A stretch of DNA of 64,000 bases. Source: Burkholderiales bacterium UBA4657. Lineage in GTDB: Bacteria; Pseudomonadota; Gammaproteobacteria; Burkholderiales; Burkholderiaceae_E. The notes under the pieces were generated by a model. That model made no database searches and was not told the DNA's origin. It saw only the letters and a program-made list of their open reading frames with translations. The position numbers and the translations under genes are program-made. Below are positions 22,389 to 57,327 of this stretch, one piece after another. Within the stretch, counting starts at the first letter, position 1. Each line of letters begins with the position of its first letter. The stretch lies in the NCBI GenBank assembly GCA_002405475.1, contig DHLX01000023.1, forward strand, positions 41,221 to 105,220, read 5' to 3'.

Positions 22389-23288
22389 ATGACTGGTCTG
22401 GAAAAAATTGAGCCCTTGGCGGAAGATTTTTTGTCGTCATTATGGATAGAAGATGGACTGGCCAAAAATACGCTATCAGCCTATCGTGCCGATCTTGAGG
22501 CATTTATTCAATGGCTGAAAAAGAGTAACGTTGGATTGTTGTCGGTACAACAGAGCGATGTTTCTGCCTATTTGGCTGTCAGGCATGCAGCAAGCAAGGC
22601 TACTTCAGCCAATCGCCGTTTGACCGTACTCAGACGCTTCTATCGCTGGGCGCTGCGTGAACAACATATGCAGCATGACCCAACCGTCAATATTGAATCA
22701 GCGAAGCAGCCCTTGCGCTTTCCCAAAACCTTGAGCGAAGTGCAGGTTGAGGCTCTATTGGCGGCACCAGACGTGGCAACACCCTTGGGTCTACGTGATC
22801 GTGCCATGCTTGAATTACTTTATGCTACTGGCCTGAGAGTATCGGAGCTGGTACAGATCCAGTGTTATGCAATCGGCTGGAACGAGGGTGTGTTGCGCGT
22901 CGTTGGCAAGGGCAACAAGGAGCGACTGGTACCATTTGGTGAAGTGGCGCTCGACTGGCTCAGGCGCTATATGCACGAGTCTCGTACTGCATTATTAAAA
23001 CGGCAAGTCTCGGATGCCTTGTTCGTTACCGCACGGGGTGACGCCATGACGCGTCAAATGTTCTGGGTCTTGATTAAAAAGCACGCATTGTCTGCTGGCA
23101 TTGGCATCCCACTATCGCCGCATACCTTGCGTCATGCTTTCGCCACCCATCTGCTCAACCACGGTGCCGACTTGCGTGTAGTACAACTATTGTTAGGCCA
23201 TGCCGACATAGGCACCACCCAGATTTATACCCACGTGGCGCGTGAGCGCCTGAAGCAATTGCACGAAAGGCACCATCCGCGTGGTTAA
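22389..23288 (+). CDS. xerD: tyrosine recombinase XerD
   Basis: 299 aa. N-terminal LWIEDGLAKNTLSAYRADLEAF. Catalytic-region motifs ATGLRVSEL, HTLRHAFATHLL and LLGHADIGTTQIYTHV. Confidence 0.9.
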   Translation: MTGLEKIEPLAEDFLSSLWIEDGLAKNTLSAYRADLEAFIQWLKKSNVGLLSVQQSDVSAYLAVRHAASKATSANRRLTVLRRFYRWALREQHMQHDPTVNIESAKQPLRFPKTLSEVQVEALLAAPDVATPLGLRDRAMLELLYATGLRVSELVQIQCYAIGWNEGVLRVVGKGNKERLVPFGEVALDWLRRYMHESRTALLKRQVSDALFVTARGDAMTRQMFWVLIKKHALSAGIGIPLSPHTLRHAFATHLLNHGADLRVVQLLLGHADIGTTQIYTHVARERLKQLHERHHPRG

Positions 23289-31668: not shown

Positions 31669-32496
31669 ATGAATAAATTAAGTTTAATGACTTTGCCATG
31701 GGCGTGCCTTGTTGGGTCGGCGTCTGCCCAAAGCGTTGGTAGTGATTCTGCCCGAACCGCGGCAACCGGCTCGGCCGGGGGAGCCAACTCCGAGAATGCC
31801 AATGCTCAATTAGAACGCTGTGACCGTTCACTCGGTACTCTGGCTGTAGTCGAGGATACGAGTGCTGCCTGGTATGCACAAATGCAGTCGTATCAGTTAC
31901 GTTCCACTACCCCAGTACTACGCATGCTGGTACAACAGTCGAACTGTTTTGTGGTGGTGGAGCGTGGCCAGGCCATGCGTAACATGATGCAGGAGCGGGA
32001 ACTGCAGCGTAGCGGCGAATTGCGTGGCAATAGCAACATGGGTCAGGGCCAGATGGTGGCAGCTGACTATACTTTGAACCCAACGATTACCTTCAGCCAG
32101 AAAGGCACGGGTGGTGTAGGAGGGTTTCTGGGAGCCATCGGTGGAAGTGTATTGGGCGTCATTGGCGGCGGGGTGAAATTCAACGATGCCTCGACCATGC
32201 TGGTGCTGGTCGACAACCGCTCCGGGGTGCAACTGGCGGCAGCGGAAGGTGCGTCGCGTAATGTTGACTTTAACCTGTTTGGTGGCTTGTTTGGTGGTGG
32301 TGCGGCTGGCGGTTTGGGCGGGTTTACCAATACCCCTGAGGGTAAAATTATCGTCGCTGCTTTCATAGACTCCTACAACCAACTGGCCCGATCAGTGAAA
32401 AATTATCGTGCCCAGAGCGTTGAAGGTGGCCTGGGAACGGGCGGTGGGCTGGGTGTCCAGGGCGGTACGACACCAGCTTCAAGAAATCTGAAGTAA
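31669..32496 (+). CDS. secreted CsgG/HfaB-like protein, paralog 1
   Basis: Signal peptide. LGTLAVVED...PVLRMLVQQSNCFVVVERGQAMRNMMQERELQ resembles the CsgG-fold core. Gly-rich loops. Nearly identical to the next gene. Confidence 0.5.
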   Translation: MNKLSLMTLPWACLVGSASAQSVGSDSARTAATGSAGGANSENANAQLERCDRSLGTLAVVEDTSAAWYAQMQSYQLRSTTPVLRMLVQQSNCFVVVERGQAMRNMMQERELQRSGELRGNSNMGQGQMVAADYTLNPTITFSQKGTGGVGGFLGAIGGSVLGVIGGGVKFNDASTMLVLVDNRSGVQLAAAEGASRNVDFNLFGGLFGGGAAGGLGGFTNTPEGKIIVAAFIDSYNQLARSVKNYRAQSVEGGLGTGGGLGVQGGTTPASRNLK

Positions 32497-32506
32497 TTAT
32501 TCGAGG

Positions 32507-33481
32507 ATGATGTCGATGAAATACGTTTCCCTTTCCTTGTTATCTGTGGCATTACTGGCAGGATGTAATGCAACTGCGCCTACCATAGGCAATGACTCGG
32601 CCCGTACGGCAGCAACCGGCTCGGCGGGTGGTGCCAACGCAGAAAATGCCAACAAACAGCTGGAACGTTGCGATAGAACGCTGGGCACATTGGCGGTGGT
32701 CGAAGATACCAATGCGGCCTGGTATGCACAAATGCAGTCCTATCAATTGCGCTCTACCACGCCAGTACTGCGTATGCTGGTACAGCAGTCGAACTGCTTT
32801 GTGGTGGTTGAGCGTGGCCAGGCCATGCGTAACATGATGCAAGAACGTGATTTGAACCGGTCTGGAGAACTTCGTGGTGGCAGCAACATGGGTCAAGGCC
32901 AGATGGTAGCGGCTGATTTCACCATGAACCCGACCATTACCTTCAGTCAGAAAGGTACCGGCGGTCTGGGAGGTTTTCTGGGCGGCTTTGGTGGCGGTAT
33001 TGGTGCCGCGATTGCTGGCAGCATAAAATTTAACGATGCCTCCACCATGCTGGTGCTGGTGGATAATCGTTCTGGTGTTCAGTTGGCGGCAGCAGAGGGT
33101 TCCTCGCGCAATACTGACTTTAACCTGTTTGGCGGACTGTTTGGTGGCGGTGCGGCCGGTGGCGCGGGTGGTTTTACCAATACCCCGGAAGGAAAAATTG
33201 TTGTCGCCGCCTTCATTGATTCATACAACCAGTTAGTTAAGGCAGTAAAAAATTACCGTGCCCAATCGGTAGAAGGGGGTTTAGGGACTGGTGGCCATTT
33301 GGGAGTTCAGGGAGGTTCGACACCCGCCTCGCAGAAATTAGACAAAGAACCACAGAAACAGCAGCCCAAGCCGGCGCAACCTGCTTCCCAGGCTCCAGCA
33401 GCACAGACGCCCAAAACGCAATCATCTGCTCAGCCCCAACCCAAGGCGCAAACGCCAACACAGCCGCAGAAAAAGAACTGA
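32507..33481 (+). CDS. CsgG/HfaB-like lipoprotein, paralog 2, with P/Q/A-rich C-terminal tail
   Basis: Lipobox LLAGC. Same core as paralog 1. Extra tail KEPQKQQPKPAQPASQAPAAQTPKTQSSAQPQPKAQTPTQPQKKN. Confidence 0.5.
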   Translation: MMSMKYVSLSLLSVALLAGCNATAPTIGNDSARTAATGSAGGANAENANKQLERCDRTLGTLAVVEDTNAAWYAQMQSYQLRSTTPVLRMLVQQSNCFVVVERGQAMRNMMQERDLNRSGELRGGSNMGQGQMVAADFTMNPTITFSQKGTGGLGGFLGGFGGGIGAAIAGSIKFNDASTMLVLVDNRSGVQLAAAEGSSRNTDFNLFGGLFGGGAAGGAGGFTNTPEGKIVVAAFIDSYNQLVKAVKNYRAQSVEGGLGTGGHLGVQGGSTPASQKLDKEPQKQQPKPAQPASQAPAAQTPKTQSSAQPQPKAQTPTQPQKKN

Positions 33482-39191: not shown

Positions 39192-39295
39192 ATTTTATTC
39201 GTCCTACCGGGCAGTCAGTACTACCCACAGAAATTTTAAAAAGAATAAATCGTATGACTGAAATTTATTCCAGGAAGCTTTCAATGATCGCAAAA

Positions 39296-40171
39296 TTAAC
39301 GCTCTTTGTCAAATACGGGTGTGGCGCGACTAAGCCACTGCCTGGGCGATACTCCTAAACGTTGAGAAAACACTCGGGTTAGGGCTGACTGACTCGAATA
39401 ACCCAACTCTAAGGCGAGGGCCTTCAGCGTTATTCCTTCTTTCAAACGTGCTTGTACCAGAGCCAAGCGCCAATCGGCCAGATATTGACCCGGGGAAGTG
39501 CCGAGCAATTTTTTGAACTTGATGGCAAATGCGGTGCGCGACATGCCGCTTGTTTCAGCTAATTGTTCTATTGTCCAGGCCAAACCAGGAGATTCATGCA
39601 TAGCTGTCAGCGCCTTTGCTATTTGCGGTGATGTCAGCCCCATCAATAAACCGTCGTTGATATTGGCATGTGCTGGATGATCCAAAAGCCAGCGTAGCAA
39701 CTGAATCAAGACTACCTCGAATAGACGATCCGCCAGAATTTTGTGGCCACAACGCACCCGCCCGGTTTCTGCAAATAGCAAATTTAATGATGCTTCCAGG
39801 CCATCCACTTCCGATAATGGCAATAGAACAAACGACGGCAAGGCTTGCACTATGGGGTGCATATTGCCACCTTGAAAGTCAATCTCAGCACAAACAAACT
39901 GCGAGGCGTCATCTGGACTATTGATAAATTGATGGGTCAAGGGTCGCGGATAAAACAAAAAAGAAGGTTCATTCAATTGCACCTGGGCAGGCACGCCTTG
40001 CATCTTTTGTGGGTGCCGCACTTTTACTGAACCACTTCTAAAGACATGTAAATAAGCTTTCTTGGCCTCATACGGAAAAACATGTTTGCCACACATCGAG
40101 CCAGAAAATGACAAACGTGCACTGAGGTGGAAATGCTCAAGCAATGCCGAAAGGCGGTCTATGGACGGCAT
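39296..40171 (-). CDS. AraC-family transcriptional regulator (cupin-type N-terminal domain)
   Basis: C-terminal dual HTH (WTIEQLAETSGMSRTAFAIKFKKLLGTSPGQYL...ELGYSSQSALTRVFSQRLGVSPRQW). Confidence 0.9.
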   Translation of the reverse strand: MPSIDRLSALLEHFHLSARLSFSGSMCGKHVFPYEAKKAYLHVFRSGSVKVRHPQKMQGVPAQVQLNEPSFLFYPRPLTHQFINSPDDASQFVCAEIDFQGGNMHPIVQALPSFVLLPLSEVDGLEASLNLLFAETGRVRCGHKILADRLFEVVLIQLLRWLLDHPAHANINDGLLMGLTSPQIAKALTAMHESPGLAWTIEQLAETSGMSRTAFAIKFKKLLGTSPGQYLADWRLALVQARLKEGITLKALALELGYSSQSALTRVFSQRLGVSPRQWLSRATPVFDKER

Positions 40172-40304
40172 GATTTACCTAGTGGGCTGTGTGAACGATT
40201 TGTCATGATTAATGTACTAAAAGAAACCAATTGTATCAACCATTTCTGCAAAATTCGCCCTGTTCCAGATGAAATTGTTCTGACGGACTAACCCAGTTAA
40301 AGGA

Positions 40305-41063
40305 ATGAAAATGAAATTTACGACACTCGCTCACATAACTACGGCAGCCTCCATTTATATGGTCAGTAGTATTGTTGTCGCCCATACTCATCATCATGGC
40401 GGCATCACTACCCAACCCAGTAAGGTGGTTAAGGCATCCTTCGATATCGTCCACTCCAAAATCAGTACCGAGGGAAATGTGGCGATTTTTCATATGGCGG
40501 TTTCCGGTAAGGCAGGCGATTCAAAACCCGCGAAATCAGGCAAGTTGGCCGGAAGTTCGGTATTTTCCTACGTCTGGCCTACAACACTTGACCCTTCTGC
40601 AGTAGGCTTCGAAGCTAAATCGGGAATCCTGGCATTTGCTGTTACATCACATCCCGATTTTGACGATACCCCTTTGTTTGACGAAAACGGTGACGGCAAT
40701 CCGCAAAACGATGGCAATGTTTGGCATTCGCATTGGGTGGTACTACAACCCGATGATGCTTGCGGTAAAGGTGCCCTTAAGGTGGTGGATATCCCCAAAG
40801 ATAGCAAACCGGCATTACCAAAAACCTGGCCAGGCTTGCCTATATTGATTGACAGCCCGGGTTGGAATCCAATCTTCAAAAAAGATACCGTGGAAGTGCG
40901 GGTTCCGTTTGATGATATCGGCGCTGTAAATGCAGCTTCATTTGATGGCGTTACAGCCGCTTTGCGTGTCAATGCTAGCGTGCATAACCCGCTCTTGTGT
41001 GTAGTCAATGTCTTTAAGGTGGGTTCAGGCAATCTGTCCCTTCCTGGTAAGGTCAATAAATAA
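40305..41063 (+). CDS. secreted hypothetical protein with His-rich mature N-terminus
   Basis: Signal-like N-terminus, then AHTHHHGG. Further His cluster NVWHSHWVV. I recognise no family. Confidence 0.6.
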   Translation: MKMKFTTLAHITTAASIYMVSSIVVAHTHHHGGITTQPSKVVKASFDIVHSKISTEGNVAIFHMAVSGKAGDSKPAKSGKLAGSSVFSYVWPTTLDPSAVGFEAKSGILAFAVTSHPDFDDTPLFDENGDGNPQNDGNVWHSHWVVLQPDDACGKGALKVVDIPKDSKPALPKTWPGLPILIDSPGWNPIFKKDTVEVRVPFDDIGAVNAASFDGVTAALRVNASVHNPLLCVVNVFKVGSGNLSLPGKVNK

Positions 41064-41112
41064 ACTCACGTTGCTTATTTTTCTGTTATTTCATTTTAGA
41101 AAAGGTTCCGCC

Positions 41113-41652
41113 ATGTCTTATCTCAATATCAATACCAATCAGGCTGCACCAGCAAGCCAGGAAATTCTTCAGCAAATTCACGCCGCGTTCGGCGCTACAC
41201 CCAATATGTTTAAGGTTGTTGCCAATTCACCGGCGGCACTGAAAAGTATGTGGAGTTCATTTGGCGCGCTGGGTTCTGGTACCTTAGGTGCCAAACTTGG
41301 CGAGCAGATTGCGGTGGCGATCGCCAATCGCAATCAATGCGAATACTGCTTGGCAGCACATACGGTACTCGGCAGGAATGCTGGCGCAAGTGCAGAGGAT
41401 ATGGCCAACGCTCAAATAGGCAAGTCACTTGATTACAAAACTCAGGCTGCACTGACTTTCTCACTGAAAATTGTCGAGAAACGTGCAGCTATCTCGCAGG
41501 CAGATGTTGAGGCGGTTCGTGCAGCGGGTTTTAGTGACGGAGAAATTGTTGAGATCATGGCTCATGTTGCGCTCAATTTGTTTACGAACTACGTTAACGT
41601 GGCATTTAACGTACCCGTAGATTTTCCCAAGGTAGTGCTTAAAACGAACTAG
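41113..41652 (+). CDS. carboxymuconolactone decarboxylase / AhpD-like family protein
   Basis: CEYCLAAH (CxxC-H) motif. About 180 aa starting at MSYLNINTN. Confidence 0.8.
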   Translation: MSYLNINTNQAAPASQEILQQIHAAFGATPNMFKVVANSPAALKSMWSSFGALGSGTLGAKLGEQIAVAIANRNQCEYCLAAHTVLGRNAGASAEDMANAQIGKSLDYKTQAALTFSLKIVEKRAAISQADVEAVRAAGFSDGEIVEIMAHVALNLFTNYVNVAFNVPVDFPKVVLKTN

Positions 41653-41705
41653 GGAAATCAAGCATCGGTATTTTTGTAGTACCTGATCAGTTGTCATAAC
41701 TGTAG

Positions 41706-41742
41706 TCAGAGCCTCAGCGGAATTAATCCGCTGAGGCTCTGA
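41706..41742. other. perfect 15-bp stem hairpin without U-tract
   Basis: TCAGAGCCTCAGCGG-AATTAAT-CCGCTGAGGCTCTGA, 14 nt upstream of the next start codon. Confidence 0.7.
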
Positions 41743-41755
41743 ATGAAAGGCCTGT

Positions 41756-42463
41756 ATGAAAACTTGTGTAGCTTTGCGACACTTGATGTTCGAAGACCTA
41801 GGTCTTCTTGAGCCTATGCTTAATGCTGATGGTTGGAGAATTTTCTACTACGAGCTTGGCGTGGGTCAATTACAAAAAATCAGTCTTGATCAGGTGGATC
41901 TTCTAGTCATACTGGGCGGACCCATCGGTGCGGAAGATGATGAGCAATATCCTTTTCTAAAAGATGAAGTGGCTTTAATTCGTGATCGCTTGGCCACAAG
42001 GAAGCTTATGCTGGGGATTTGTCTGGGAGCCCAACTGATTGCTCGGGCTATGGGATCACGGGTTAAACCCATGAAAGAGAAAGAAATCGGTTTTACTTCT
42101 TTGACATTTACTGCCGAAGGGCTAAATTCGCCTCTTGCAGAAATAGGCATGCAACCTGTATTTCATTGGCATGGTGATCAATTCGACTTGCCTACAGGCA
42201 TAAAGTCTTTGGCTAGTACACCGAAATGTCCGAATCAGGCTTTTCAGGTTGAACATCATACCTTGGCATTGCAGTTCCACATCGAGATAGACACAAATCG
42301 AATTGAGCAATGGCTGATTGGTCATGGTGCGGAAATACAGCAATGTGCAATTTCAACGAATATCTTGCGCAACGATGCCATACGGTATGGTTCAGGGATG
42401 AGTGACGCCATGCGGGGTGTCATAAATCAGTGGATTACCGCCGCGCGCCATTTTGATCACTAA
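41756..42463 (+). CDS. class I glutamine amidotransferase-like protein
   Basis: LLVILGGP, GICLGAQLIA (Cys elbow) and LQFHIE motifs. Confidence 0.8.
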   Translation: MKTCVALRHLMFEDLGLLEPMLNADGWRIFYYELGVGQLQKISLDQVDLLVILGGPIGAEDDEQYPFLKDEVALIRDRLATRKLMLGICLGAQLIARAMGSRVKPMKEKEIGFTSLTFTAEGLNSPLAEIGMQPVFHWHGDQFDLPTGIKSLASTPKCPNQAFQVEHHTLALQFHIEIDTNRIEQWLIGHGAEIQQCAISTNILRNDAIRYGSGMSDAMRGVINQWITAARHFDH

Positions 42464-42707
42464 ATATGGCGCTAGGAAATCAGCAACCTATTCCGCTGTA
42501 GCATTGAGAAACAGGGCACGCCATGCCCAGAGATAGAGCATTGCCAATATCACGCGAGTTTGCGCACCATAATGGCGCATAAGCGCACCACGATGTCCTG
42601 AGGGGGTGGATTGCTCACCTTCCCCTGCCTCACTGCTGAAATCAGGGTTCTGATTTAAGCCATTGAAAAACATCAGAAATAAAACATAAATGCGATCGGG
42701 CACGGTA

Positions 42708-47875: not shown

Positions 47876-48016
47876 TCTCATCGACTTGCTTTTTTTCAGT
47901 ACTTGATACCGGTTTTTTGATTGCGTAGGTTGGTTCGACATTTTTGACAAAGCTTGCACTGGTCCAGAACCTGTGGCAACCTGCTTTTCATGCGATATTC
48001 CAGGTGCTAAATGTAA

Positions 48017-49279
48017 GTGAGTAATCAAAAAGTAATTGTTGTTGGTGCAGGCGTTATAGGTTGTGCTACGGCCTATTTGCTAGCGCGGCATGGATTTGCA
48101 GTAACGGTGATTGAAGCCGAACCTGGCCCCGGGTTAATGACCAGCTATGCCAATGGCGCGCAACTCAGCTATTCCTATGTCGAACCGCTGGCATCGCCGG
48201 CGACACTGAAAAAACTTCCTTCATTGCTGCTTGATCCTCAATCGCCACTGCGTTTCCGGGTGACAGGTGAATGGGCGCAGATAGTATGGGGTTTCAAATT
48301 TATTCGTGCCTGTACCCAAGCGCATGTCAAATTTGCTACCAAGGCTTTGTTAGGACTATCTTTTCTGAGTCGTAATGAGTTAGAGCTAGCAATCGAAAGA
48401 GACCGATTGTCTTTTGATTATTCACAACCTGGTAAATTGGTCATCTATAACACTCCAGAGGCTATTGAAGTAGCGAAAAAGCAAATGGAATTTCAGCGTA
48501 CGCTTGGTTGTCAACAAACGCTGTTAAGCACTCACGAATGTCTTGAGCGGGAACCTGCCCTGGAGAATTATCAATCGTATATGGCCGGCGGCGTATGGAC
48601 ACCGGGCGATGCGGTGGGTGATGCCAAAAAATTATGTGATGATCTGGTACGGCATAGTACAAGAATGGGTGCAACATTCCGGTATCTTTCCAATGTTGAA
48701 AATTTTATTGTTCAGCGTGATCGTATTCAAGCTGCTGTCCTTGAGTCAGGTGAGAGGCTTGAGGCAGACTATTTTGTGCTGGCGAGCGGTAACGGAGCTG
48801 CAAGTCTTGGGAAAAAATTAGGGCTATCGCTGCCAGTCTATCCACTGAAAGGCTATAGCCTTAGTTTGACCCTCAGGGCGCCTGCAAAGGCACCGCAAGT
48901 GAGTGTCACTGACCTCAGACGAAAAATTGTTTATGCTTGCCTCGGTAATAAACTGCGTGTTGCAGGCATGGCTGAGCTCGTGGGTTATGATTGGTCCGTC
49001 AGTGAAAAAAAGCTGCAGTTTTTAATGCAATGTACTGAAGAAACGTTTCCGGGTGCATGTGATTTTCATACAGATATCGCTCCCTGGGTTGGTCTGCGAC
49101 CCGTAACTCCAACTTCACTGCCCATGATTGGACCTGCCCGTTTTACCAATTTTTTGTTGAATGTGGGTCATGGTTCTTTGGGATTCACCCTGGCATTAGG
49201 GAGTGCTCGCCTGATAGTGGCTTATTTAAACAAGCAAACAGCTCTGATTGCTCAGCAAGGATGGAGTTTTAAACCTTGA
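48017..49279 (+). CDS. D-amino acid dehydrogenase-like FAD oxidoreductase
   Basis: GTG start. VIVVGAGVIGCATAYLLA dinucleotide fold. VYPLKGYSLSL, LRVAGMAELVGYD and GLRPVTP..P align by eye with E. coli DadA. Confidence 0.75.
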   Translation: MSNQKVIVVGAGVIGCATAYLLARHGFAVTVIEAEPGPGLMTSYANGAQLSYSYVEPLASPATLKKLPSLLLDPQSPLRFRVTGEWAQIVWGFKFIRACTQAHVKFATKALLGLSFLSRNELELAIERDRLSFDYSQPGKLVIYNTPEAIEVAKKQMEFQRTLGCQQTLLSTHECLEREPALENYQSYMAGGVWTPGDAVGDAKKLCDDLVRHSTRMGATFRYLSNVENFIVQRDRIQAAVLESGERLEADYFVLASGNGAASLGKKLGLSLPVYPLKGYSLSLTLRAPAKAPQVSVTDLRRKIVYACLGNKLRVAGMAELVGYDWSVSEKKLQFLMQCTEETFPGACDFHTDIAPWVGLRPVTPTSLPMIGPARFTNFLLNVGHGSLGFTLALGSARLIVAYLNKQTALIAQQGWSFKP

Positions 49280-49347
49280 AAACACCACTGCCTTCATTTG
49301 TGGCAAGCTCTGACTGTCTGATATCTGATGGAAATGGTTGATTATTG

Positions 49348-50895
49348 ATGAACCTGCTTAAAGCCCTGGCCACGGTCAGCGGCCTGACTCTGTTATCCCG
49401 CATTTCTGGTCTGGTCAGGGACTTGCTTGTAGCACGCTACTTCGGTGCCTCGGGAGCGACCGACGCTTTTTTCCTGGCTTTCAGCCTGCCTAATTTATTA
49501 CGTCGCCTGTTCGCCGAGGGCGCTTTTTCCCAGGCATTTGTGCCGATACTGGGTGAGTATAAAAATTCACGTGGCGAGGAGCAAACCCGCATCCTGGTCG
49601 ATTATGTTGCCACGCTCCTGTTCTGGATTTTGATGCTCGTCACTGCCATAGGCGTGATAGCTGCTCCCCTCATCATTTATATTGTCGCCCCTGGGTTTGC
49701 TGATGAACCCGAGCGCTTTTCTCTCGCGGTACAGATGCTGCGCATTATGTGGCCGTACATATTGCTGATTTCTCTGGTTGCCTTTGCTGGCGGTATCTTG
49801 AATACCTATAGTCGTTTTTCTATTCCGGCGTTTACCCCGGTTTTGTTAAACCTTAGTTTTATTGTTGCCATGCTTGGATTCGCACATTTTTTTCACCCAC
49901 CTATCTATGTGCTGGCCTGGGCGGTATTGGCAGGGGGCGTTGCACAGTTGTTATTGCAGTGGTCGGCATTAAAGCGTATCGGCAAGTTGCCCCGAATTCG
50001 CTGGAATTTGCGTCGTGCCTGGGCAGACGAGGGCGTGAAGCGCATTTTGCGACAGATGGGTCCGGCGGTGCTGGGGGTCTCGGTAGCGCAAATTTCGCTG
50101 GTGATTAACCGGATTTTTCAGTCATTTCTGGAAACCGGCTCAATTTCCTGGTTGTTTTATGCCGATCGATTAATGGAATTCCCGACCGCATTGCTAGGTG
50201 TCGCACTAGGGACCATACTGCTGCCGTTTTTGACTAAAGCTCATGCACAACAAGATCAGTCGTCTTATAACGAATTACTGGACTGGGGCTTACGTCTGAC
50301 TTTTTTATTGGCACTACCTGCCTCGGTCGCTTTGGCAGTATTGTCACTACCTCTTATTGCTACCCTGTTTCAGCATGGCCAGTTTTCTGCCCGCGATACC
50401 ATCATGAGTGCTCAAGCCTTGACTGCTTATGCGCTAGGCCTGCTGGGTTTGATCAGTGTCAAGGTATTGGCCCCGGCTTTTTATGCCAAGCAGGACATCA
50501 AGACACCAGTAAAAATTGCGGTGCTGGTTCTGATGCTGACCCAGTTAATGAATCTGGCGTTTATAGGCTGGCTCAAGCATGCTGGCCTGGCTCTGTCCAT
50601 TTCGCTCGCCGCTTGTATCAATGCAGCGCTGCTTTATGCGGGACTGAGGAAACGGGGCATCTATCTGCCTGCACCAGGCTGGGCATGGTTTTTATTTAAA
50701 CTACTGGTAGCTTTGGCCGTGTTCGGCGCGGCGTTGTACTGGGCGCAATCGCTGGTACCGTGGCTGCAACTGGTAGCACAGCCACTACAGCGTGCATTTT
50801 TTCTCGGACTCATAGTGATAGGCGGCGCGTTGTTATATTTCACGCTACTGTTTATGCTAGGGTTCAGGTTAAAGGACTTTAGACGCCGAGCATGA
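49348..50895 (+). CDS. murJ: lipid II flippase MurJ
   Basis: MNLLKALATVSGLTLLSRISGLVRD...FFLAFSLPNLLRRLFAEGAFSQAFVP is typical MurJ/MviN. 14 TM-like segments. Confidence 0.9.
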   Translation: MNLLKALATVSGLTLLSRISGLVRDLLVARYFGASGATDAFFLAFSLPNLLRRLFAEGAFSQAFVPILGEYKNSRGEEQTRILVDYVATLLFWILMLVTAIGVIAAPLIIYIVAPGFADEPERFSLAVQMLRIMWPYILLISLVAFAGGILNTYSRFSIPAFTPVLLNLSFIVAMLGFAHFFHPPIYVLAWAVLAGGVAQLLLQWSALKRIGKLPRIRWNLRRAWADEGVKRILRQMGPAVLGVSVAQISLVINRIFQSFLETGSISWLFYADRLMEFPTALLGVALGTILLPFLTKAHAQQDQSSYNELLDWGLRLTFLLALPASVALAVLSLPLIATLFQHGQFSARDTIMSAQALTAYALGLLGLISVKVLAPAFYAKQDIKTPVKIAVLVLMLTQLMNLAFIGWLKHAGLALSISLAACINAALLYAGLRKRGIYLPAPGWAWFLFKLLVALAVFGAALYWAQSLVPWLQLVAQPLQRAFFLGLIVIGGALLYFTLLFMLGFRLKDFRRRA

Positions 50896-51731
50896 CTGCC
50901 ATGACCTCTGCACTGGCTTACTGGGAAACGCTGGTTCGTGAAGACGAGCACCTGCCCCTGTTTGAGGCAGCTTTATCCATAGCCCAGGATGAATACCCCG
51001 AAGTCGATTTGCAGCAGATATTGTCTAGTATTGACGAAATGGCGGCACGCCTGAAAGCACGCTTTGCTGCTGATGCACCTCTGGCGCACAAACTGCGCTT
51101 GCTGAATCATTTTTTCTTCAATGAACTGCATTTTCGCGCCAACGTTAACGATTATTACGATACCGACAACAGTTATCTCAATCGTGTTCTGGAGCGTCGC
51201 TGCGGTATACCCATTACCTTGTCGGCCATGTATATGGAAATTGGCCAACAGGCTGGTTTGCCCCTGAAAGGCATTGCTTTCCCGGGGCATTTTCTGGTGA
51301 AAATGCGGCTGGGGGAGGGCACTGTCATCATGGATGTATTTGAAGGCGGGAAATCTCTGTCGCGCGAAGAACTGGAACAGCGTCTGGAACCTTACCTGGC
51401 TGAACAAAATGTTGCTGCACGCGAGGTACTCCCACTGTTTCTTGAAACCGCTAGTGCGCGACACATTCTGGCTCGCATGTTGCATAACCTTAAAGGTATA
51501 TATCGGGCCGATCAGGACTATTCACGTTTATTGCCCGTACTTCAGCGTTTGGTGGTTTTGCTGCCCGAACATCCGGTCGAGCGGCGTGATCGGGGTTTGT
51601 GCTATGCCGAACTGGACTGTCCGCGTGCTGCCATGGAAGATTTGCAGGCCTATCTGGCCATGGACCCGCAAGCCCCCGATGCAGAAAGCGTACGCGAACG
51701 CATGGCCGACCTGGAAAAACAAATTAACTAA
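50892..51731 (+). CDS. SirB1-like transglutaminase/TPR family protein
   Basis: NDYYDTDNSYLNRVLERRCGIPITLSAMYMEIGQQAGLPLKGIAFPGHFLV is typical of SirB1/YchA. ATGA overlap with murJ. Confidence 0.75.
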   Translation: MTAMTSALAYWETLVREDEHLPLFEAALSIAQDEYPEVDLQQILSSIDEMAARLKARFAADAPLAHKLRLLNHFFFNELHFRANVNDYYDTDNSYLNRVLERRCGIPITLSAMYMEIGQQAGLPLKGIAFPGHFLVKMRLGEGTVIMDVFEGGKSLSREELEQRLEPYLAEQNVAAREVLPLFLETASARHILARMLHNLKGIYRADQDYSRLLPVLQRLVVLLPEHPVERRDRGLCYAELDCPRAAMEDLQAYLAMDPQAPDAESVRERMADLEKQIN

Positions 51732-51735
51732 TCCT

Positions 51736-51759
51736 GGTCATTTCGGCTGCATGCGTATG
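51736..51759. repeat. left copy of the 24-bp perfect direct repeat GGTCATTTCGGCTGCATGCGTATG
   Basis: Identical to 56567-56590. It duplicates the last codons and stop of the SDR gene. Confidence 0.95.
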
Positions 51760-51836
51760 ATGCTGCGGTATTTCGCCAATTCTGTGACAGATAACACCAG
51801 ACAAGCGTATGTCGGTTGTGGATTAGCTGATTATGA

Positions 51837-54371
51837 CTAGATTGACTCCTGGTGCGTTTCAAGTAGAGTTAGCTGTCCGTTATCATAGCGAACACGTTGA
51901 CCTGGTAATAGGCGTGGGGGATCTGGCACTACCGCAGAGGGTTTGTGTAGCTCGCGTAGCAGAGTGGCGCCGTGCGATAAGCGTCCGCCCATGCGCACCA
52001 CAACGGCTAAGGCCTGCTGGTACTGGGCATGACATCCTGGGTCTAGAGTGTCTTCTAATAAAATATCGGTGCCTACTACGCCTTCTGCACTACCAGGGTA
52101 AATGACAAAGCTTGTAGCGATTTCACTACCCTTGCTGTGCCCGTCTTGCCAAAAGCTACCTTGTTGAGTGCGTGCATCGGGGTGTGGGGCAAACCAGTGG
52201 GCGCGGTCTGTATTGGGCATCGCATGGTGTAATCGCAAAAAGATTCGCATGAGGTTATCGCGGTACCATTCCCGCACCTGCACGCAGTATCCGCGCATAC
52301 CTGGCAGGCCTAGGAGCCAGGCCCAGCGCACTGCTATGGGCCAAACTGGGAAGTTTTGCAGCGGCATGGCGATGGGCGTGCTGGGACGTGGCGTGGCAGG
52401 ATCGCTCTCCCAGGGCAGGCGGTGTAGAGCTTGATGCAGGTCTTGGTAGGCAGTGGCGGGCTGGCCCCACACGCTGCCACCACTGCTGGCTAGAGCCGTG
52501 GCTATGCACAAATTGCCCTGCACCACGAACACATAAAACCGCACCAGCCAGTCGGCCAACCTCTGTCCGCTGGCATCTTGTTGATGTAGTTGGGCCAGTT
52601 CAGCATCCCACTCGGCTAAGGCGGTAGACAAGTTCAACAGTGCCTTGCGGCTCTGGGTCTGCATGCGCCATAGCAGGGGCAGGTTACACAATAGTCGCCA
52701 GGGTCGCCAGGGCAGAGCTGGTACGCTGCCACCTACCTCGTGGGCATAGCGGCGGGTGGGCATGCCCCAGTCGGCCAGCCGAGCTAAAAACAAGTCGTTG
52801 TTAATGTACGAGGCATTGGCAAACAAGGCGGTAAAAGGCTCGTTGTCCTGTAGCACCCGGGTATCCCAGCGAGCCATGATGGCGGGTATGCTGCCTGCTG
52901 CACGGCGTTGGGCATATTCAATCAGGCGGCTGGGTTGGGGTGGCAGTATTTCGGCCACATTGGCTGCTGTTAAATGCCGGCGCCAGCCATACCCGCTGAT
53001 GGGACGGTATTGCAGCAACCATAGTTGCTTACCATCCCAGGCCCATTCTACATCGCCATGTACATAGTGAAAGGTGTGCAACACGGACTGTAGAAACTGC
53101 CAGAGTGTTTGCGCGCTCAGCCCTGCTTGAGTGGGGAACTGGCCTTCGTTCCAGTCACCGCCCAAACGTGATAATACAGCGCGTTGTGGCGTACATTGGC
53201 CATTGGCCAGGACTTCAAGATGGCCTTGCGCCCATTCTATTTCCACTGCCAAGTGGCGCACAAAGGCTATGCCAGACAGCACAGGGGTTACAAAGCGTTG
53301 AACTACCACCTCGCCCGCAAGCTGAGCCAACAACTGATGTACTTTGTTTGGTACATCAGATGCTGATACGCGTAAAAAGGTGGTACTCAGGCCTGAGTTG
53401 GCGGCATCGGCTTGGTCTTCTGTGAGGTTGGATGAACGTACGGCCCAGAGGGCAGCGGGCTGCTGTGCCAACAAAGCAGGCAGGCGTGGATCTTGTGGAT
53501 GCGTCACGTTAATGGCAGGTGGCACGGGTAGATCTGCCATTAGCGCCAGTTGCAGGCGGCCACCTTTGCTGTGGGCGGTGATGGTGTCACTTGTGCTGCT
53601 GCAAGCTTTCGTGTCTCCCTCCAGCCATGCCACAGTGTCTGCGGGGTGGTCTATCCAGGGGTAGTGACCCCAGTGCTTGTGCAAGGTGACGGTTAATTGT
53701 GCCCGCGCCAGTACGGCCGACCATGCCGCTGCTTGGCGCATATCTAGCACGGCATCACGCCCGCCCCATACCAGTTCTATTGGGTCAGTGATCCATTCGA
53801 GCAAGGGCAGTGCCGTGTCGGGGCGCACCATGTCCCATAGTGGCAAAAAGGCACGGCAGCGCGCGTAGCCTTGACCCATGCGTTGGTACTGTGCGGGATT
53901 CCATCGTTGTGATGAAAACTGACGTGCAAACCAAGCGGGCTGATGAGACAGTAGCGCATGCACCAAGGTACGCACCGGGCGGGGAGCCATCAGCGCAGGC
54001 AGACGGCGTTGCCATAAATACACGCCTACCGGGGCCAGCAACACGGTACGGGCGAAGTGTCCAGGCTTTTTTTGCAGCGCATGCAGCACAACCAAAGCAT
54101 TCACGCCTACTGCAAAAATAGCTTGTCCAGGCAGCGTTGTGGCCAGCAAAGCATCGGCAAAATGACTTAGGCTGTGGCAAGGTGGTGCGGGGTTGCTGCC
54201 GTAGCCGGGTAGTTCAATAGGTACTGGGTAGTAGTGTGCAAAGTGAGGGAGAGCATCGTCCCACCAGTTAGCTGCGCTGCCATTGCCAGCCAGCAGGTAC
54301 ATCAGGGGGCGGGGCATTGGCGGTGTCACACCAGGTTTTGTAGTGCTGCCCGTAGTGTCGGATAGCGCCAT
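51837..54371 (-). CDS. fusion protein: degenerate alpha/beta-hydrolase domain + PEP/pyruvate-binding ATP-grasp + C-terminal PEP-utilising His-swivel domain
   Basis: WAVRSSNLTEDQADAANSGLSTTF (PPDK_N-like). C-terminal GSAEGVV...VVVRMGGRLSHGATLLRELHKPSAVV (mobile-domain His). N-terminal hydrolase-like fold with AVGVNALVV where GxSxG is expected. The start is uncertain (54371 or 54317). Confidence 0.7.
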   Translation of the reverse strand: MALSDTTGSTTKPGVTPPMPRPLMYLLAGNGSAANWWDDALPHFAHYYPVPIELPGYGSNPAPPCHSLSHFADALLATTLPGQAIFAVGVNALVVLHALQKKPGHFARTVLLAPVGVYLWQRRLPALMAPRPVRTLVHALLSHQPAWFARQFSSQRWNPAQYQRMGQGYARCRAFLPLWDMVRPDTALPLLEWITDPIELVWGGRDAVLDMRQAAAWSAVLARAQLTVTLHKHWGHYPWIDHPADTVAWLEGDTKACSSTSDTITAHSKGGRLQLALMADLPVPPAINVTHPQDPRLPALLAQQPAALWAVRSSNLTEDQADAANSGLSTTFLRVSASDVPNKVHQLLAQLAGEVVVQRFVTPVLSGIAFVRHLAVEIEWAQGHLEVLANGQCTPQRAVLSRLGGDWNEGQFPTQAGLSAQTLWQFLQSVLHTFHYVHGDVEWAWDGKQLWLLQYRPISGYGWRRHLTAANVAEILPPQPSRLIEYAQRRAAGSIPAIMARWDTRVLQDNEPFTALFANASYINNDLFLARLADWGMPTRRYAHEVGGSVPALPWRPWRLLCNLPLLWRMQTQSRKALLNLSTALAEWDAELAQLHQQDASGQRLADWLVRFYVFVVQGNLCIATALASSGGSVWGQPATAYQDLHQALHRLPWESDPATPRPSTPIAMPLQNFPVWPIAVRWAWLLGLPGMRGYCVQVREWYRDNLMRIFLRLHHAMPNTDRAHWFAPHPDARTQQGSFWQDGHSKGSEIATSFVIYPGSAEGVVGTDILLEDTLDPGCHAQYQQALAVVVRMGGRLSHGATLLRELHKPSAVVPDPPRLLPGQRVRYDNGQLTLLETHQESI

Positions 54372-55768
54372 TTAAAGTGCGCGTCCAGCAGGCGTTGCGG
54401 TACAGCTTTTTGCCCATCGACAAAAATTTGCGCCATCTCACCTGCTAGCCAGCGTATAGCAGTTGCAGGAATGTGCAGCCACACAGGGCGGTGCAGTAGT
54501 TGCCCTACGGTAGTGGCAAAGGTGCTCTGTGTAACGCATTCGGGGGCTACAGTGTTGTACGCGCCTTGCATATCGGGCCGTACCAATGCTTGAGCAATGA
54601 TAGCCAATACGTCTTCACGGTGAATCCAGGCCATGACCTGTTGCCCGCTACCGAGTCGACCACCCAGACCTAACCGGTGCGGTAGCAGCATGGGGGGTAA
54701 CGCTCCACCTGGACCTAGCACCATGCCGAGGCGTAGCACTACTTGGCGTATGCCTAGCATGGTGGCTTGGGCAGCGGCTTGTTCCCATTGCATGCATAAC
54801 TCGGTCATAAAACCTTGGCCGGGTGCGCTTTGTTCAGTCAGAGTTTCTTCAGGTGAGCGCACGCCGTAGACCCCAATACCCGATGCTTGTATCCACACAG
54901 TGGGTTTGTGTTGCGTGCGCTGTGCCCATTGCAGCAGTTGGTCGGTGGTGTGTAGCCGACTATCGAGCAGGCGCTTTTTTTGCCGCTGTGTCCAAGGCAT
55001 GCCTACCACGCGGGCACCTGCCAGATTCACTACAGCATCAAACGTGTCGTCGGGGTGTAAATGGTTCAGCGTGTATATGCAGCGCGCACGGCCTGCAAAC
55101 AAAAAAGCAGCGTTTAAAGGTTGGCGTGTGAGTACCGTGACCTGGTGGCCTGCGTCCAGCAGCTGTTGCACCAGGGCTTCGCCAATAAAGCCGGTGCCGC
55201 CCGTGACCAAGACTCGCTGGTGCGGCATTTGAGTAAAGGGGTTGAGGGCAGGTACTTGACGTGCTAGGCGCAGCGCAGCGAGGCCGTCGCGCACTCCCGA
55301 AGCGGCCACACCCACGGCAAACAGGCTTAATACCCAGCCACGCCAACCGAGGTCTATGGCTACCAGGGCGGTAGGCAAACTGGCCCATTGGGCTAGTTGC
55401 ACCCCATACAGCCCAAACAGAGCACCCCCATTGATCGCCAGCACCGTGTGTAGCACGCGTTCCGTGATGGGTAGCTTACGGCTGTTGTCCTCTACAATAA
55501 AGTCCCACAAAGTCAGTCCCACTTCGATCAGTACTACCGCTGCTAACACCCAGGCCCACAGCCCGTGAAACTGCAAGTGTGCTATGCCGGCAAATAGCGC
55601 CCCGTACAGTATGGCACGTACCGCATGTATGACAAGTTCTAGCCGCGCATTATGGCGCTGAGGCAGAGCGACAGTCATTTCGTGGTGGTAGAGGGTATCA
55701 AAAGCCCCCATGAGTCCCTGGGCAATCAGCAGGGCAATGGCAATATCTAGTATGGCAATTTCAGTCAT
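54326..55768 (-). CDS. membrane-anchored SDR39U1/YfcH-like (TIGR01777, DUF1731) NAD-dependent epimerase-family protein
   Basis: About 170 aa N-terminal multi-TM domain, then RVLVTGGTGFIGEALVQQLLDAGHQVTVLTR and C-terminal ...GQKAVPQRLLDAHFKWRYPTLRAAL, typical of the DUF1731 tail. Confidence 0.7.
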   Translation of the reverse strand: MTEIAILDIAIALLIAQGLMGAFDTLYHHEMTVALPQRHNARLELVIHAVRAILYGALFAGIAHLQFHGLWAWVLAAVVLIEVGLTLWDFIVEDNSRKLPITERVLHTVLAINGGALFGLYGVQLAQWASLPTALVAIDLGWRGWVLSLFAVGVAASGVRDGLAALRLARQVPALNPFTQMPHQRVLVTGGTGFIGEALVQQLLDAGHQVTVLTRQPLNAAFLFAGRARCIYTLNHLHPDDTFDAVVNLAGARVVGMPWTQRQKKRLLDSRLHTTDQLLQWAQRTQHKPTVWIQASGIGVYGVRSPEETLTEQSAPGQGFMTELCMQWEQAAAQATMLGIRQVVLRLGMVLGPGGALPPMLLPHRLGLGGRLGSGQQVMAWIHREDVLAIIAQALVRPDMQGAYNTVAPECVTQSTFATTVGQLLHRPVWLHIPATAIRWLAGEMAQIFVDGQKAVPQRLLDAHFKWRYPTLRAALQNLV

Positions 55769-56219
55769 GGTTATGAAGGTGTTGTTGGTCGTGCTTGTAG
55801 AGCCAGACTAATGGTGGCAGCATGCTGGCAAGTGCTAGCGCGTCTACCCAAACGTGGCTCCAAACACCGGCTTGAGCCGAAATTATCATGTCTTGCGGTG
55901 CCCACAGCACTAGGCCGGCCATCAGCCAGAGCCATACTTGAGGCATGCGAGTGAGGTTGCCTAGGTGTACCAGAGCAAGCATCCAAACGGCAAGGCACTG
56001 TATGGTGGCACCAAATAGCGCCATCCACCAGGCATTATTGACTCTGGCGTGTGGCGCGGGTGTCGTGTCCCAAAATGCAGTTACCAAGCTTTGGTGATAG
56101 GCATCGAGCCAAGGACCGTTTCCCCCTAGAACCAGACCTATGCCTACAAGGCCGTGGCATAAAGCGGCTGCGTACATCCAGCGTACGACCCATATGCGGA
56201 TGAGTGATGTGCGGTTCAT
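55761..56219 (-). CDS. Trp-rich four-helix membrane protein (hypothetical)
   Basis: 152 aa with four hydrophobic segments. An 8-nt overlap with the downstream gene suggests co-translation. Confidence 0.55.
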   Translation of the reverse strand: MNRTSLIRIWVVRWMYAAALCHGLVGIGLVLGGNGPWLDAYHQSLVTAFWDTTPAPHARVNNAWWMALFGATIQCLAVWMLALVHLGNLTRMPQVWLWLMAGLVLWAPQDMIISAQAGVWSHVWVDALALASMLPPLVWLYKHDQQHLHNHD

Positions 56220-56566
56220 GACTTTACCCAGTCAAGTAAGGGTGGCTTGTGGCGCAGATGCCAACGAACCTATACCACAATAGCGCAGACCGATGCCCAC
56301 TAAATTGGCTTGAGCCAAGCATGACTTAATCAGATGGTTATGGTTGAGTAACACTACCTGTCCATTTTTTTGATTCCTGCCGTTGCTGAAATTAGATAAC
56401 TTTCTGAAAGAGTTGTCAAAGTGGATGTCTTCAGTGGCCTTTCTTACAAGGGGTTCGTCATTGTTAGTGGTGATTTATAGCTGAGTGGATTGAACCAGTT
56501 GTGATAAGCGTTTCAATTCCAGCCAACATATAGGTCTTCAGCTGTCAATTTTGGTGTGATCAAATC

Positions 56567-56590
56567 GGTCATTTCGGCTGCATGCGTATG
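56567..56590. repeat. right copy of the 24-bp perfect direct repeat
   Basis: Identical to 51736-51759. Contains the stop codon (56569-56571) and the ...IRMQPK codons of the SDR gene. Confidence 0.95.
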
Positions 56591-57327
56591 GCACCGTCGA
56601 GCCGTATCGATTCGCCGTTCAACATGGGGTTGACGATAATCTGTTCAGCCAGCAGGGCGTATTCCTCAGGCTTGCCGAGCCGTGGCGGAAACGGCACCAT
56701 GGCGCCAAGTGCCTGTTGTACTTCTTTGGGCATGCCCAGCAGCATGGGCGTTTCAAAAATGCCTGGGGCTATGGTCATGACGCGAATACCATGACGTGAC
56801 AGGTCACGCGCCATCGGCAGGGTCATGCTGACGATTCCGCCTTTGGAAGCGGCATAAGCGGCTTGCCCCATTTGCCCATCGTAGGCGGCGACCGAGGCGG
56901 TCATGATAATGACGCCGCGCTCACCATCGCTATTCGGCGTATTGCCCTGCATGGCCTGGGCGGCCAGGCGTGCCATATTGAAGGTGCCGAGCAGATTGAT
57001 ACGTAGTGTTTTATCGAACAGATCGAGCGCATGGGCGCCATCACGCCCGATGGTTTTGCTGGCAGGGGCAATGCCGGCGCAATTGACAAGTATTTCTAGT
57101 GATCCGAGTGCCAGGCAGGCCTGTACCGCCGCTTGGGCGCTATCTTCGCGCGTGACGTCGCAAAGAATGAAGCGTCCCGAAATCTCTTGTGCCAGAGCGT
57201 TCCCGGCCTCCTGATTCAGGTCGGCAATAACGACTTTGGCGCCCAATGCTGACAAGCGCCGTGCGGTCGCCGCACCCAGCCCCGAGGCACCGCCGCTAAT
57301 CAAGGCCACACTGTTTTGAATATTCAT
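56569..57327 (-). CDS. 3-hydroxyacyl-CoA dehydrogenase type II-like short-chain dehydrogenase
   Basis: Start [18 protein letters not shown], with GGAGAA upstream. YAASKGG catalytic motif. The C-terminus ...[12 protein letters not shown] matches the HSD10-type ending. Confidence 0.85.

Follow-up and report, generated by a model that had tools for sequence, protein, structure and literature searches.

A three-gene cassette between 24-bp direct repeats at the 3' end of a short-chain dehydrogenase gene in a Burkholderiales species known from metagenomes

The inserted segment and its junctions

The DNA analysed here is a window of 64,000 nucleotides from Burkholderiales bacterium UBA4657 (positions 41,221 to 105,220 of contig DHLX01000023.1, assembly GCA_002405475.1), in which a cassette of three genes lies between two copies of a perfect 24-bp direct repeat at the 3' end of a gene for a short-chain dehydrogenase (SDR). 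The 24-mer, GGTCATTTCGGCTGCATGCGTATG, is present in two exact copies in this 64-kb window, at 51736-51759 and 56567-56590, where the first-pass annotation of the sequence had placed them. Further copies with up to three mismatches were not found in the window, 0 of 100 shuffles matched, and a window-wide repeat scan returned the 24-mer as the sole perfect long direct repeat of its kind. It does not belong to a dispersed repeat family.

The left chromosomal flank of the cassette is a SirB1-family gene (50892..51731, plus strand) that encodes a transglutaminase-like plus TPR protein (Pfam Transglut_core2 and TPR_9, with a weak match to the NCBIfam SirB1 model). The left copy of the repeat, which resembles a left attachment (att) site, attL, begins 4 nt after the end of this open reading frame (ORF) at 51731 and repeats the SDR 3' end in a displaced position, where it is non-coding. 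The right, attR-like copy provides the target gene, the 252-aa SDR at 56569..57327 (minus strand), with its last six codons and its stop, encoding IRMQPK followed by the stop codon, and this gene is intact in occupied and empty genomes. The placement of the two copies relative to the SirB1-like stop and to the SDR 3' end is the one that had been read initially, in coordinates as well as in codons. The duplication is confined to these 24 bp. A degenerate similarity of the left inner flank to the SDR gene had also been claimed, but it is no better than that of shuffled sequence (Smith-Waterman, 2000 shuffles, p = 0.28-0.44), and an extension of the similarity past the 24-bp core was rejected for both arms (p = 0.28-0.68, 2000 shuffles).

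The interior of 4807 bp consists of a 77-bp tail, three ORFs on the same strand (152, 480 and 826/844 aa) and a 347-bp leader, in agreement with the three-gene layout and the leader of roughly 350 bp that had been described for it. The tail (51760..51836) fills the space from the left repeat to the stop of the large gene, has a likeness to the SDR gene at chance level and has no homologue elsewhere. It is followed by cargo gene 3 (51837..54317; 826 aa, or 844 aa from an upstream ATG at 54371), cargo gene 2 (54326..55768; 480 aa), cargo gene 1 (55761..56219; 152 aa) and the leader (56220..56566), all on the minus strand, the leader containing a conserved promoter-like block at 56356-56419. Pfam and NCBIfam scans of 51736-56590 found no integrase, transposase, Phage_integrase or resolvase domain, no tRNA was found in the interior, and no terminal inverted repeats of the inserted segment were detected, so that the absence of all these features, as first noted by eye, stands. 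A hidden gene or RNA in the leader was rejected, since the leader has no credible ORF and neither it nor the rest of the interior matches an Rfam family. The suggestion that the segment might be a decayed island is unlikely, because the interior holds only an operon and its promoter.

Empty sites and distribution of the cassette

In the collection of representative genomes the best SirB1 match is 69% identical, without any close relative, and the exact SirB1 protein of the window gave no record on look-up. A protein-database entry (P0121; P and L numbers denote proteins and contigs or genomes) is essentially identical to the window's SirB1 and is present on many contigs. Among the contigs listed for it, at least eight carry the three-gene cassette, and in at least two (L018 and L019) SirB1 is followed immediately by the SDR gene. 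Alignment of these two conspecifics yields the empty allele that had been predicted, namely the SirB1 stop, TCCT, one 24-mer and the SDR gene. The junction is also empty in the sister lineages L048, L027/L028 and L029, whose SirB1 proteins are 88%, 81% and 78% identical to that of the window, and the 22-nt coding end of the SDR gene is conserved in L048 and L027 (21-22 of 22 positions). As the sister lineages and some conspecifics are empty, the ancestral junction is an empty one and the insertion is confined to this species. The segment 51760-56566 is a horizontally acquired insertion with precise empty sites.

The conspecific sample that was read comprises 47 contigs, of which 24 have an identical SirB1 and 23 an identical 152-aa protein. 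Identical junctions are found in all 15 distinct occupied conspecific contigs, and the exact 152-aa protein, which is indexed in 94 collection blocks, is located at the same locus in 23/23 contigs read. One of the occupied genomes, L037 (GCA_036747345.1), is identical to the window across the compared region.

At a greater distance, where SirB1 identity falls to 66-69%, a gamma-glutamyltranspeptidase gene occupies the junction between SirB1 and SDR in L001 (6635-8494) and in L050 (10854-12764). An SDR-end repeat around the gene of L001 was looked for and not found, and that of L050 is likewise without one; the junction is variable over deeper time too.

With regard to composition, no other part of the window deviates as strongly as the cassette in its tetranucleotide signature (z = 3.6-3.9), so that the windowed comparison proposed at the outset does set it apart, and it is foreign by k-mer signature. 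The same cannot be said of the GC-richer interior that had been perceived by eye, since GC and GC at third codon positions (GC3) of the three cargo genes are unremarkable (z = +0.3 to +0.7) and lie below those of the SDR and PPase genes at the right.

Age of the cassette and alleles of the repeat

Among the occupied genomes, the interior (4807 bp) has a nucleotide diversity of 0.0008, and the left and right flanks have 0.011 and 0.0145, respectively. These genomes were divided into lineage W, which comprises the window, L037, L042 and L044, and lineage M, which comprises the remaining ones. The divergence between W and M is 0.0018 in the cassette (approximately 8 sites), 0.0405 in the left flank and 0.0227 in the right flank. 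For the pair formed by the window and L020, synonymous divergence comes to about 0.005 in the three cargo genes (5 of 1081 sites), 0.037 in SDR, 0.056 in SirB1, 0.087-0.097 in PPase, ADK and FGGY, and 0.186 in MurJ. The cassette is far younger, ten- to twenty-fold, than the chromosomal backgrounds that carry it, and its low divergence indicates that it reached these backgrounds, or moved between them, long after their split.

The change in divergence is a step located at the repeats, since the differences in SirB1 and SDR run evenly up to the junction. Lineage-specific differences are found 41, 59 and 131 bp to the left of the left repeat and 3 bp to the right of the right repeat, and the latter is an old allele, given that the sister species L048 has the same one.

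The repeat itself varies at position 4, which is either C or T. The right copy begins with GGTC in 15/15 occupied contigs, while the left copy begins with GGTC in 11 and with GGTT in 4 of the 15; of the two empty sites, one has GGTC and the other GGTT. On the right flank, the empty L018 is closest to the occupied L017 (24 differences in 5141 bp), and GGTT is present in both. Empty and occupied alleles coexist in closely related backgrounds, where a gain or a loss has occurred. No donor-type tract was seen beside the repeat in the SDR gene of the occupied genomes.

Cargo genes and related operons

The product of cargo gene 1 is small and apparently hydrophobic, and it has no family match. In its C-terminal part, the 480-aa product of cargo gene 2 is an NAD-dependent epimerase-family domain of the TIGR01777/YfcH (SDR39U1-like) type together with DUF1731. 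With 315.9 bits over residues 186-476 it passes the NCBIfam TIGR01777 cut-off of 207.35 and so belongs to this family by sequence; it also matches PDB entry 4b4o with E = 1.7e-48. Its N-terminal region of about 180 residues lies outside TIGR01777, has no family match and appears hydrophobic by eye.

The large protein has Pfam matches to PPDK_N and PEP-utilizers, and in NCBIfam only weak matches to phosphoenolpyruvate (PEP) synthase, BioH, PigC and rifampin phosphotransferase (RPH) models. Its 826 residues comprise an N-terminal alpha/beta hydrolase of the BioH/KAI2 type followed by ATP-grasp, helical and phospho-histidine swivel domains. In Foldseek, the AlphaFold model (pLDDT 78.8) retrieves as top matches the structures 5hv3, 5hv1 and 5fbs of RPH-Lm, the Listeria rifampin phosphotransferase (E = 1.5e-11 to 6e-10), which is its best PDB fold match, as well as alpha/beta hydrolases. 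Overall TM-scores are low (0.18-0.24) because the domain arrangement differs. The PPDK_N ATP-grasp domain, the swivel domain and the GG-x-SH histidine motif, which is invariant in 25 homologues, are shared with the rifampin phosphotransferase/PEP synthase superfamily, whereas the fused N-terminal hydrolase sets the protein apart from it. Membership of the rifamycin-inactivating phosphotransferase family was rejected, as the RIF_Ptrans_rph model gives 16.8 bits against a cut-off of 999 and the likeness is at fold level only. The protein may work as a phospho-histidine phosphotransferase outside the rifampin-phosphotransferase family. A role of the cargo in anti-phage defence was also rejected, since PADLOC gave no match for any of the three proteins.

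The start of the large gene varies by lineage. In the window there is a C at 54332 and the frame is open to 54371, which gives a version of 844 aa that overlaps the upstream gene by 46 nt, and in other lineages the gene is annotated with 826 or 821 aa. The 826-aa form is the likelier product, because homologues align from residue 19.

The promoter-like block of the leader has, on the minus strand, a -35 element TTGACA (56414-56419) and a -10 element TCTAAT (56391-56396) separated by a 17-nt spacer. The block of about 64 bp (56356-56419) aligns upstream of a DCC1-like gene in the metagenomic lineage L014 (7562-7625), where the -10 element reads TTTAAT. Homology to L014 is otherwise that of the coding region, with this leader block as the sole exception. 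The cassette therefore brings the promoter of the operon along, without the DCC1-like or MarR genes. A remnant of the DCC1-like gene in the leader is not claimed, the match of 9-24 residues (E = 0.05-0.07) being marginal. As a speculation, the cassette may be expressed without its usual repressor, as the MarR and DCC1-like operon heads are missing. The block also contains a short palindrome, CTTTC-A-GAAAG.

The same three-gene module is found in the metagenomic lineage L014-L016, at 82% nucleotide identity and in another neighbourhood, with the DCC1-like gene in first position. In L033 it follows MarR and DCC1-like genes (71% protein identity, P0004), and in Pseudomonas chlororaphis (L031) the identity is about 67%. 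Homologues of the large protein that are approximately 66% identical are widespread in Pseudomonas, Burkholderia, Bordetella and Achromobacter. Matches to plasmid records are to homologous genes only, on megaplasmids or chromids of Burkholderia and Cupriavidus. The search for the same cassette elsewhere, which had been recommended together with the question of whether it travels with an integrase, thus turned up homologous operons, none of them with an integrase nearby. A literature search turned up no paper dealing with the cargo module or the source assemblies.

Mechanism of insertion

The account that is tentatively favoured here, at slightly less than an even chance, is a reciprocal recombination of the att type carried out by a trans-acting recombinase. 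The incoming DNA would have been just the three-gene operon and its native promoter. A single reciprocal (conservative) recombination within the 24 bp common to the incoming DNA and to the SDR 3' end would then have inserted it into the junction between SirB1 and SDR of one Burkholderiales species, leaving attL and attR and an undamaged SDR gene. A site-specific recombinase encoded elsewhere, probably of the tyrosine type, would most likely have catalysed the exchange, which would make the cassette an att-flanked element with cargo only, similar to a cis-mobilizable element. The site-specific nature of the exchange, the supply of the recombinase in trans and a continuing gain and loss at the repeats are what we infer from the following observations. 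Since the right copy always begins with GGTC and the left copy is variable, the crossover would be located to the right of position 4. An att core fits better than a longer homology of gene ends, because only the terminal 24 bp of SDR are duplicated, and an event of the att type is favoured because the inner flank is not derived from SDR and the SDR gene lacks a donor-type tract. An integration into different backgrounds is also consistent with the divergence step that is seen at both repeats. The idea that the element brought its own gene end agrees with the right copy, invariably GGTC, and with the left copy, which varies as the host does; the asymmetry of 4/15 against 0/15 keeps this part of the proposal suggestive only.

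Several observations weigh against this account. Statistically, the same asymmetry of the two copies does not decide the matter. The divergence step can also arise without site-specific recombination, given that conversion tracts coming from empty-site chromosomes must stop at the heterology boundary, and such tracts would restore old alleles of the flanks as far as the repeats. All genomes compared are metagenome assemblies, in which linkage is reliable within the read length and longer haplotypes are a consensus. No integrase-bearing element, either at the site or carrying the 24-mer, was found in the 47 conspecific contigs, and metagenome contigs of the Joint Genome Institute (JGI), IMG/VR, phage and plasmid records gave no integrase-bearing relative. 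The phage records had no match to the segment, and IMG/VR had none to the large protein, to a 22-mer or to the P-arm. In the plasmid and phage blastn searches the whole segment was used as the query, and a lone 24-bp site scores below the E-value limit, so these searches test the arms and the cargo and not the 24-mer. Carriage by a phage, virus or plasmid was rejected on the grounds that phage records and IMG/VR were blank and that the plasmid matches are homologous genes only. The homologous operons elsewhere are plain chromosomal ones, with no integrase nearby and no flanking repeat longer than 13 nt. Neither a circular (attP) junction nor a second insertion site was found in the 23 and 24 contigs; the P-core-P' junction of such a circle would read ...GATCAAATC-24-mer-ATGCTGCGG..., or, written with the core, ...GGTGTGATCAAATC-GGTCATTTCGGCTGCATGCGTATG-ATGCTGCGGTATTTCGCC... 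In this reconstructed attP, the inverted repeat at the core is not significant (7/9 with a 7-bp spacer, equalled by 13% of shuffles) and arm-type repeats are not above chance. As for recombinase genes in the window, the only one among the approximately 28 ORFs scanned (of about 53 with at least 150 aa) encodes the housekeeping tyrosine recombinase XerD (22389-23288, plus strand; TIGR02225, 380 bits, above the cut-off), 29 kb from the cassette.

A quite different origin of the same structure, and the main rival, is a single illegitimate or short-homology insertion, with the 24-bp duplication as a by-product and a subsequent spread by homologous recombination, without any dedicated recombinase. 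This appears possible, if on the doubtful side. The insertion could have followed from homology-facilitated illegitimate recombination or from a Campbell-type event, in which a circular fragment undergoes a single crossover within the conserved 22-24-bp gene end, and losses from occasional recombination or slippage between the two 24-bp repeats. A length of 24 bp is near the minimum for RecA-dependent exchange in E. coli, and the conservation of the 22-nt SDR coding end in relatives (21-22/22 in L048 and L027) means that a foreign fragment could have had the same end. Such an origin is in line with the failure to find a recombinase, an att architecture or an alternative site, and with the restriction to one locus in all 23 contigs read. 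It is also in line with the synonymous divergence of SirB1 and SDR, which is about half that of the outer genes (0.04-0.056 vs 0.087-0.19) and could reflect partial hitch-hiking. Nevertheless, the k-mer signature is foreign and the nearest known operon is 82% identical in nucleotides; a donor distant enough for this should have left a diverged SDR tract beside the right repeat or an SDR-like inner left flank, and neither is seen. Moreover, the divergence of SirB1 and SDR is uniform up to the junction and not graded, and the old polymorphisms 3 and 41 bp from the repeats need extra conversions that end exactly at the boundary on both sides.

Two further explanations fare worse. In one of them, the repeat is a target-site duplication made by a transposition- or casposase-like process with a long staggered cut and with its machinery off the cassette. 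Exactly 24 bp of the target are doubled and no more, and the stop codon lies within the duplication so that the target gene stays intact, just as this explanation would have it. However, neither terminal inverted repeats nor a gene for a transposase or a Cas1-like protein are present, known target-site duplications measure 2-15 bp, and both copies would be expected to derive from the host, whereas the right one is the same throughout and the left one varies with the host; the process is accordingly very unlikely. The least probable explanation, for which we see hardly any room, holds that the cassette is ancestral and vertically inherited and that the empty sites are deletions only. A deletion between the direct repeats would indeed give the observed empty site, but all sampled sister lineages (SirB1 78-88% identical) are empty, the synonymous divergence of the cassette is 10-20 times lower than that of the neighbouring genes, and its k-mer signature is foreign.

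A trans-acting, site-specific recombinase thus remains the preferred catalyst. A stronger form of this proposal, which we regard as unlikely, is that the cassette is an actively mobile operon without a recombinase that is repeatedly integrated and excised at the 24-bp site of a housekeeping gene end. The catalyst would in that event be a host-encoded or unlinked recombinase undescribed for such use, or else a recombinase-independent mechanism acting on short repeats. Such an active, trans-mobilised class of cargo elements in free-living Betaproteobacteria, if real, would be distinct from decayed integrative and conjugative elements (ICEs), from integron cassettes and from Xer/dif modules.

Relation to known mobile elements

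The closest described category is the cis-mobilizable element (CIME). CIMEs of Firmicutes are elements that have lost the genes for integration and transfer and have kept attL and attR (PMC5704250, PMC6323972). Like them, the cassette lies between direct repeats, with the 3' end of the target gene inside one of the two, and it has precise empty sites. According to the domains of its ORFs, and with no further ORF or RNA present, it is also devoid of integrase, relaxase and transfer genes, and it would need either a recombinase in trans or accretion with a helper element. Unlike a CIME, it contains no remnant of an ICE or of an integrative and mobilizable element and is instead a complete metabolic operon with a promoter, like the chromosomal operons of L014, L033 and L031. 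No helper element that uses the same attB was found in the 47 conspecific contigs or in JGI, IMG/VR, phage and plasmid records. In addition, the host of the cassette is a betaproteobacterium known only from metagenomes, and the att role of the repeats is putative.

Islands, prophages and ICEs that are integrated at gene 3' ends by tyrosine integrases have several features in common with the cassette. The core spans the stop and the last codons and leaves the gene intact, the copy on the element side does not vary, the displaced one follows the host, and a single core is present at the empty site. In contrast to these elements, the cassette has no integrase or excisionase gene, measures only 4.8 kb and shows neither a significant inverted repeat at the core nor arm sites.

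Recombinase-less cargo between short direct repeats is also characteristic of integrative mobile elements exploiting Xer (IMEX) and of dif modules, which use the host XerC/XerD, and a host XerD is encoded in the window. The repeat of the cassette, however, is the coding end of the SDR gene. Its likeness to dif was examined and rejected, as it agrees with E. coli dif (the dif of the host may differ) at 10/28 positions, which 99% of shuffles equal, and no dif-like site was found in the window. An integron cassette was rejected as well, given the three genes with a conserved promoter block of their own and the absence of a structured inverted repeat at the ends; among the part of the window ORFs that was scanned there is no integron integrase. 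Similarly, an insertion sequence or transposon does not agree with the absence of terminal inverted repeats and of a transposase, nor with a duplication of 24 bp.

In population terms, the cassette recalls the flexible gene cassettes that natural populations exchange by homologous recombination in gene-specific sweeps, with a presence/absence pattern at intermediate frequency, a diversity far below that of the flanks and other insertions or deletions nearby. It differs from them in its clean reciprocal-crossover geometry and in being the only segment with a 24-bp duplication, since two other variable segments of the window have no flanking repeats. Small islands that lack an integrase and sit at gene 3' ends are already known, as are gene-specific sweeps of accessory cassettes.

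Other variable segments of the window

The first of these two segments, 47877-49356, contains a gene similar to D-amino-acid dehydrogenases (DAO; 48017-49279), which has the lowest GC3 in the window (z = -2.75). The gene is absent from the conspecific L013, where 131 bp of unrelated spacer are found instead. It is a second presence/absence polymorphism, of a type different from that of the cassette. The other segment, 39200-42563, measures 3.4 kb, has a low GC3 and encodes an AraC regulator, an unknown ORF, a CMD-family gene and a GATase gene. L018 has this segment, and L017, L019 and L020 have approximately 190 bp in its place; its state is independent of that of the cassette. No direct repeats flank either polymorphism.

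Two additional observations concern other parts of the window. The 3' two-thirds of MurJ (49436-50895) have a synonymous divergence of 0.19 between the lineages, with up to 11.5% in 200-bp bins, and this hyper-divergence, far above that of the neighbouring genes, suggests import from a more distant lineage. The adjacent ORFs 31669-32496 and 32507-33481, on the same strand, share a 300-nt stretch that is 77% identical (31724-32023 and 32574-32873) and look like a tandem pair of paralogues.

Biological significance

The locus is a clean natural case of an accessory operon that exists as a presence/absence polymorphism, with junctions that are precise to the base pair and a known ancestral empty state. 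What makes it a good test case, more than a surprising find, is the exact empty site together with the strong contrast in age and a cargo of wide distribution. The cargo is a widespread, uncharacterised three-gene module whose largest protein fuses an esterase to an enzyme similar to rifampin phosphotransferases. The recent spread of the cassette suggests a selectable function, which is possibly the modification or detoxification of small molecules. If a trans-acting recombinase is indeed responsible, cargo-only att-flanked elements, which are mainly known in Firmicutes, would also shape the genomes of uncultured freshwater or soil Burkholderiales. If no recombinase is involved, a 24-bp duplication alone can sustain both the gain and the loss of an operon.

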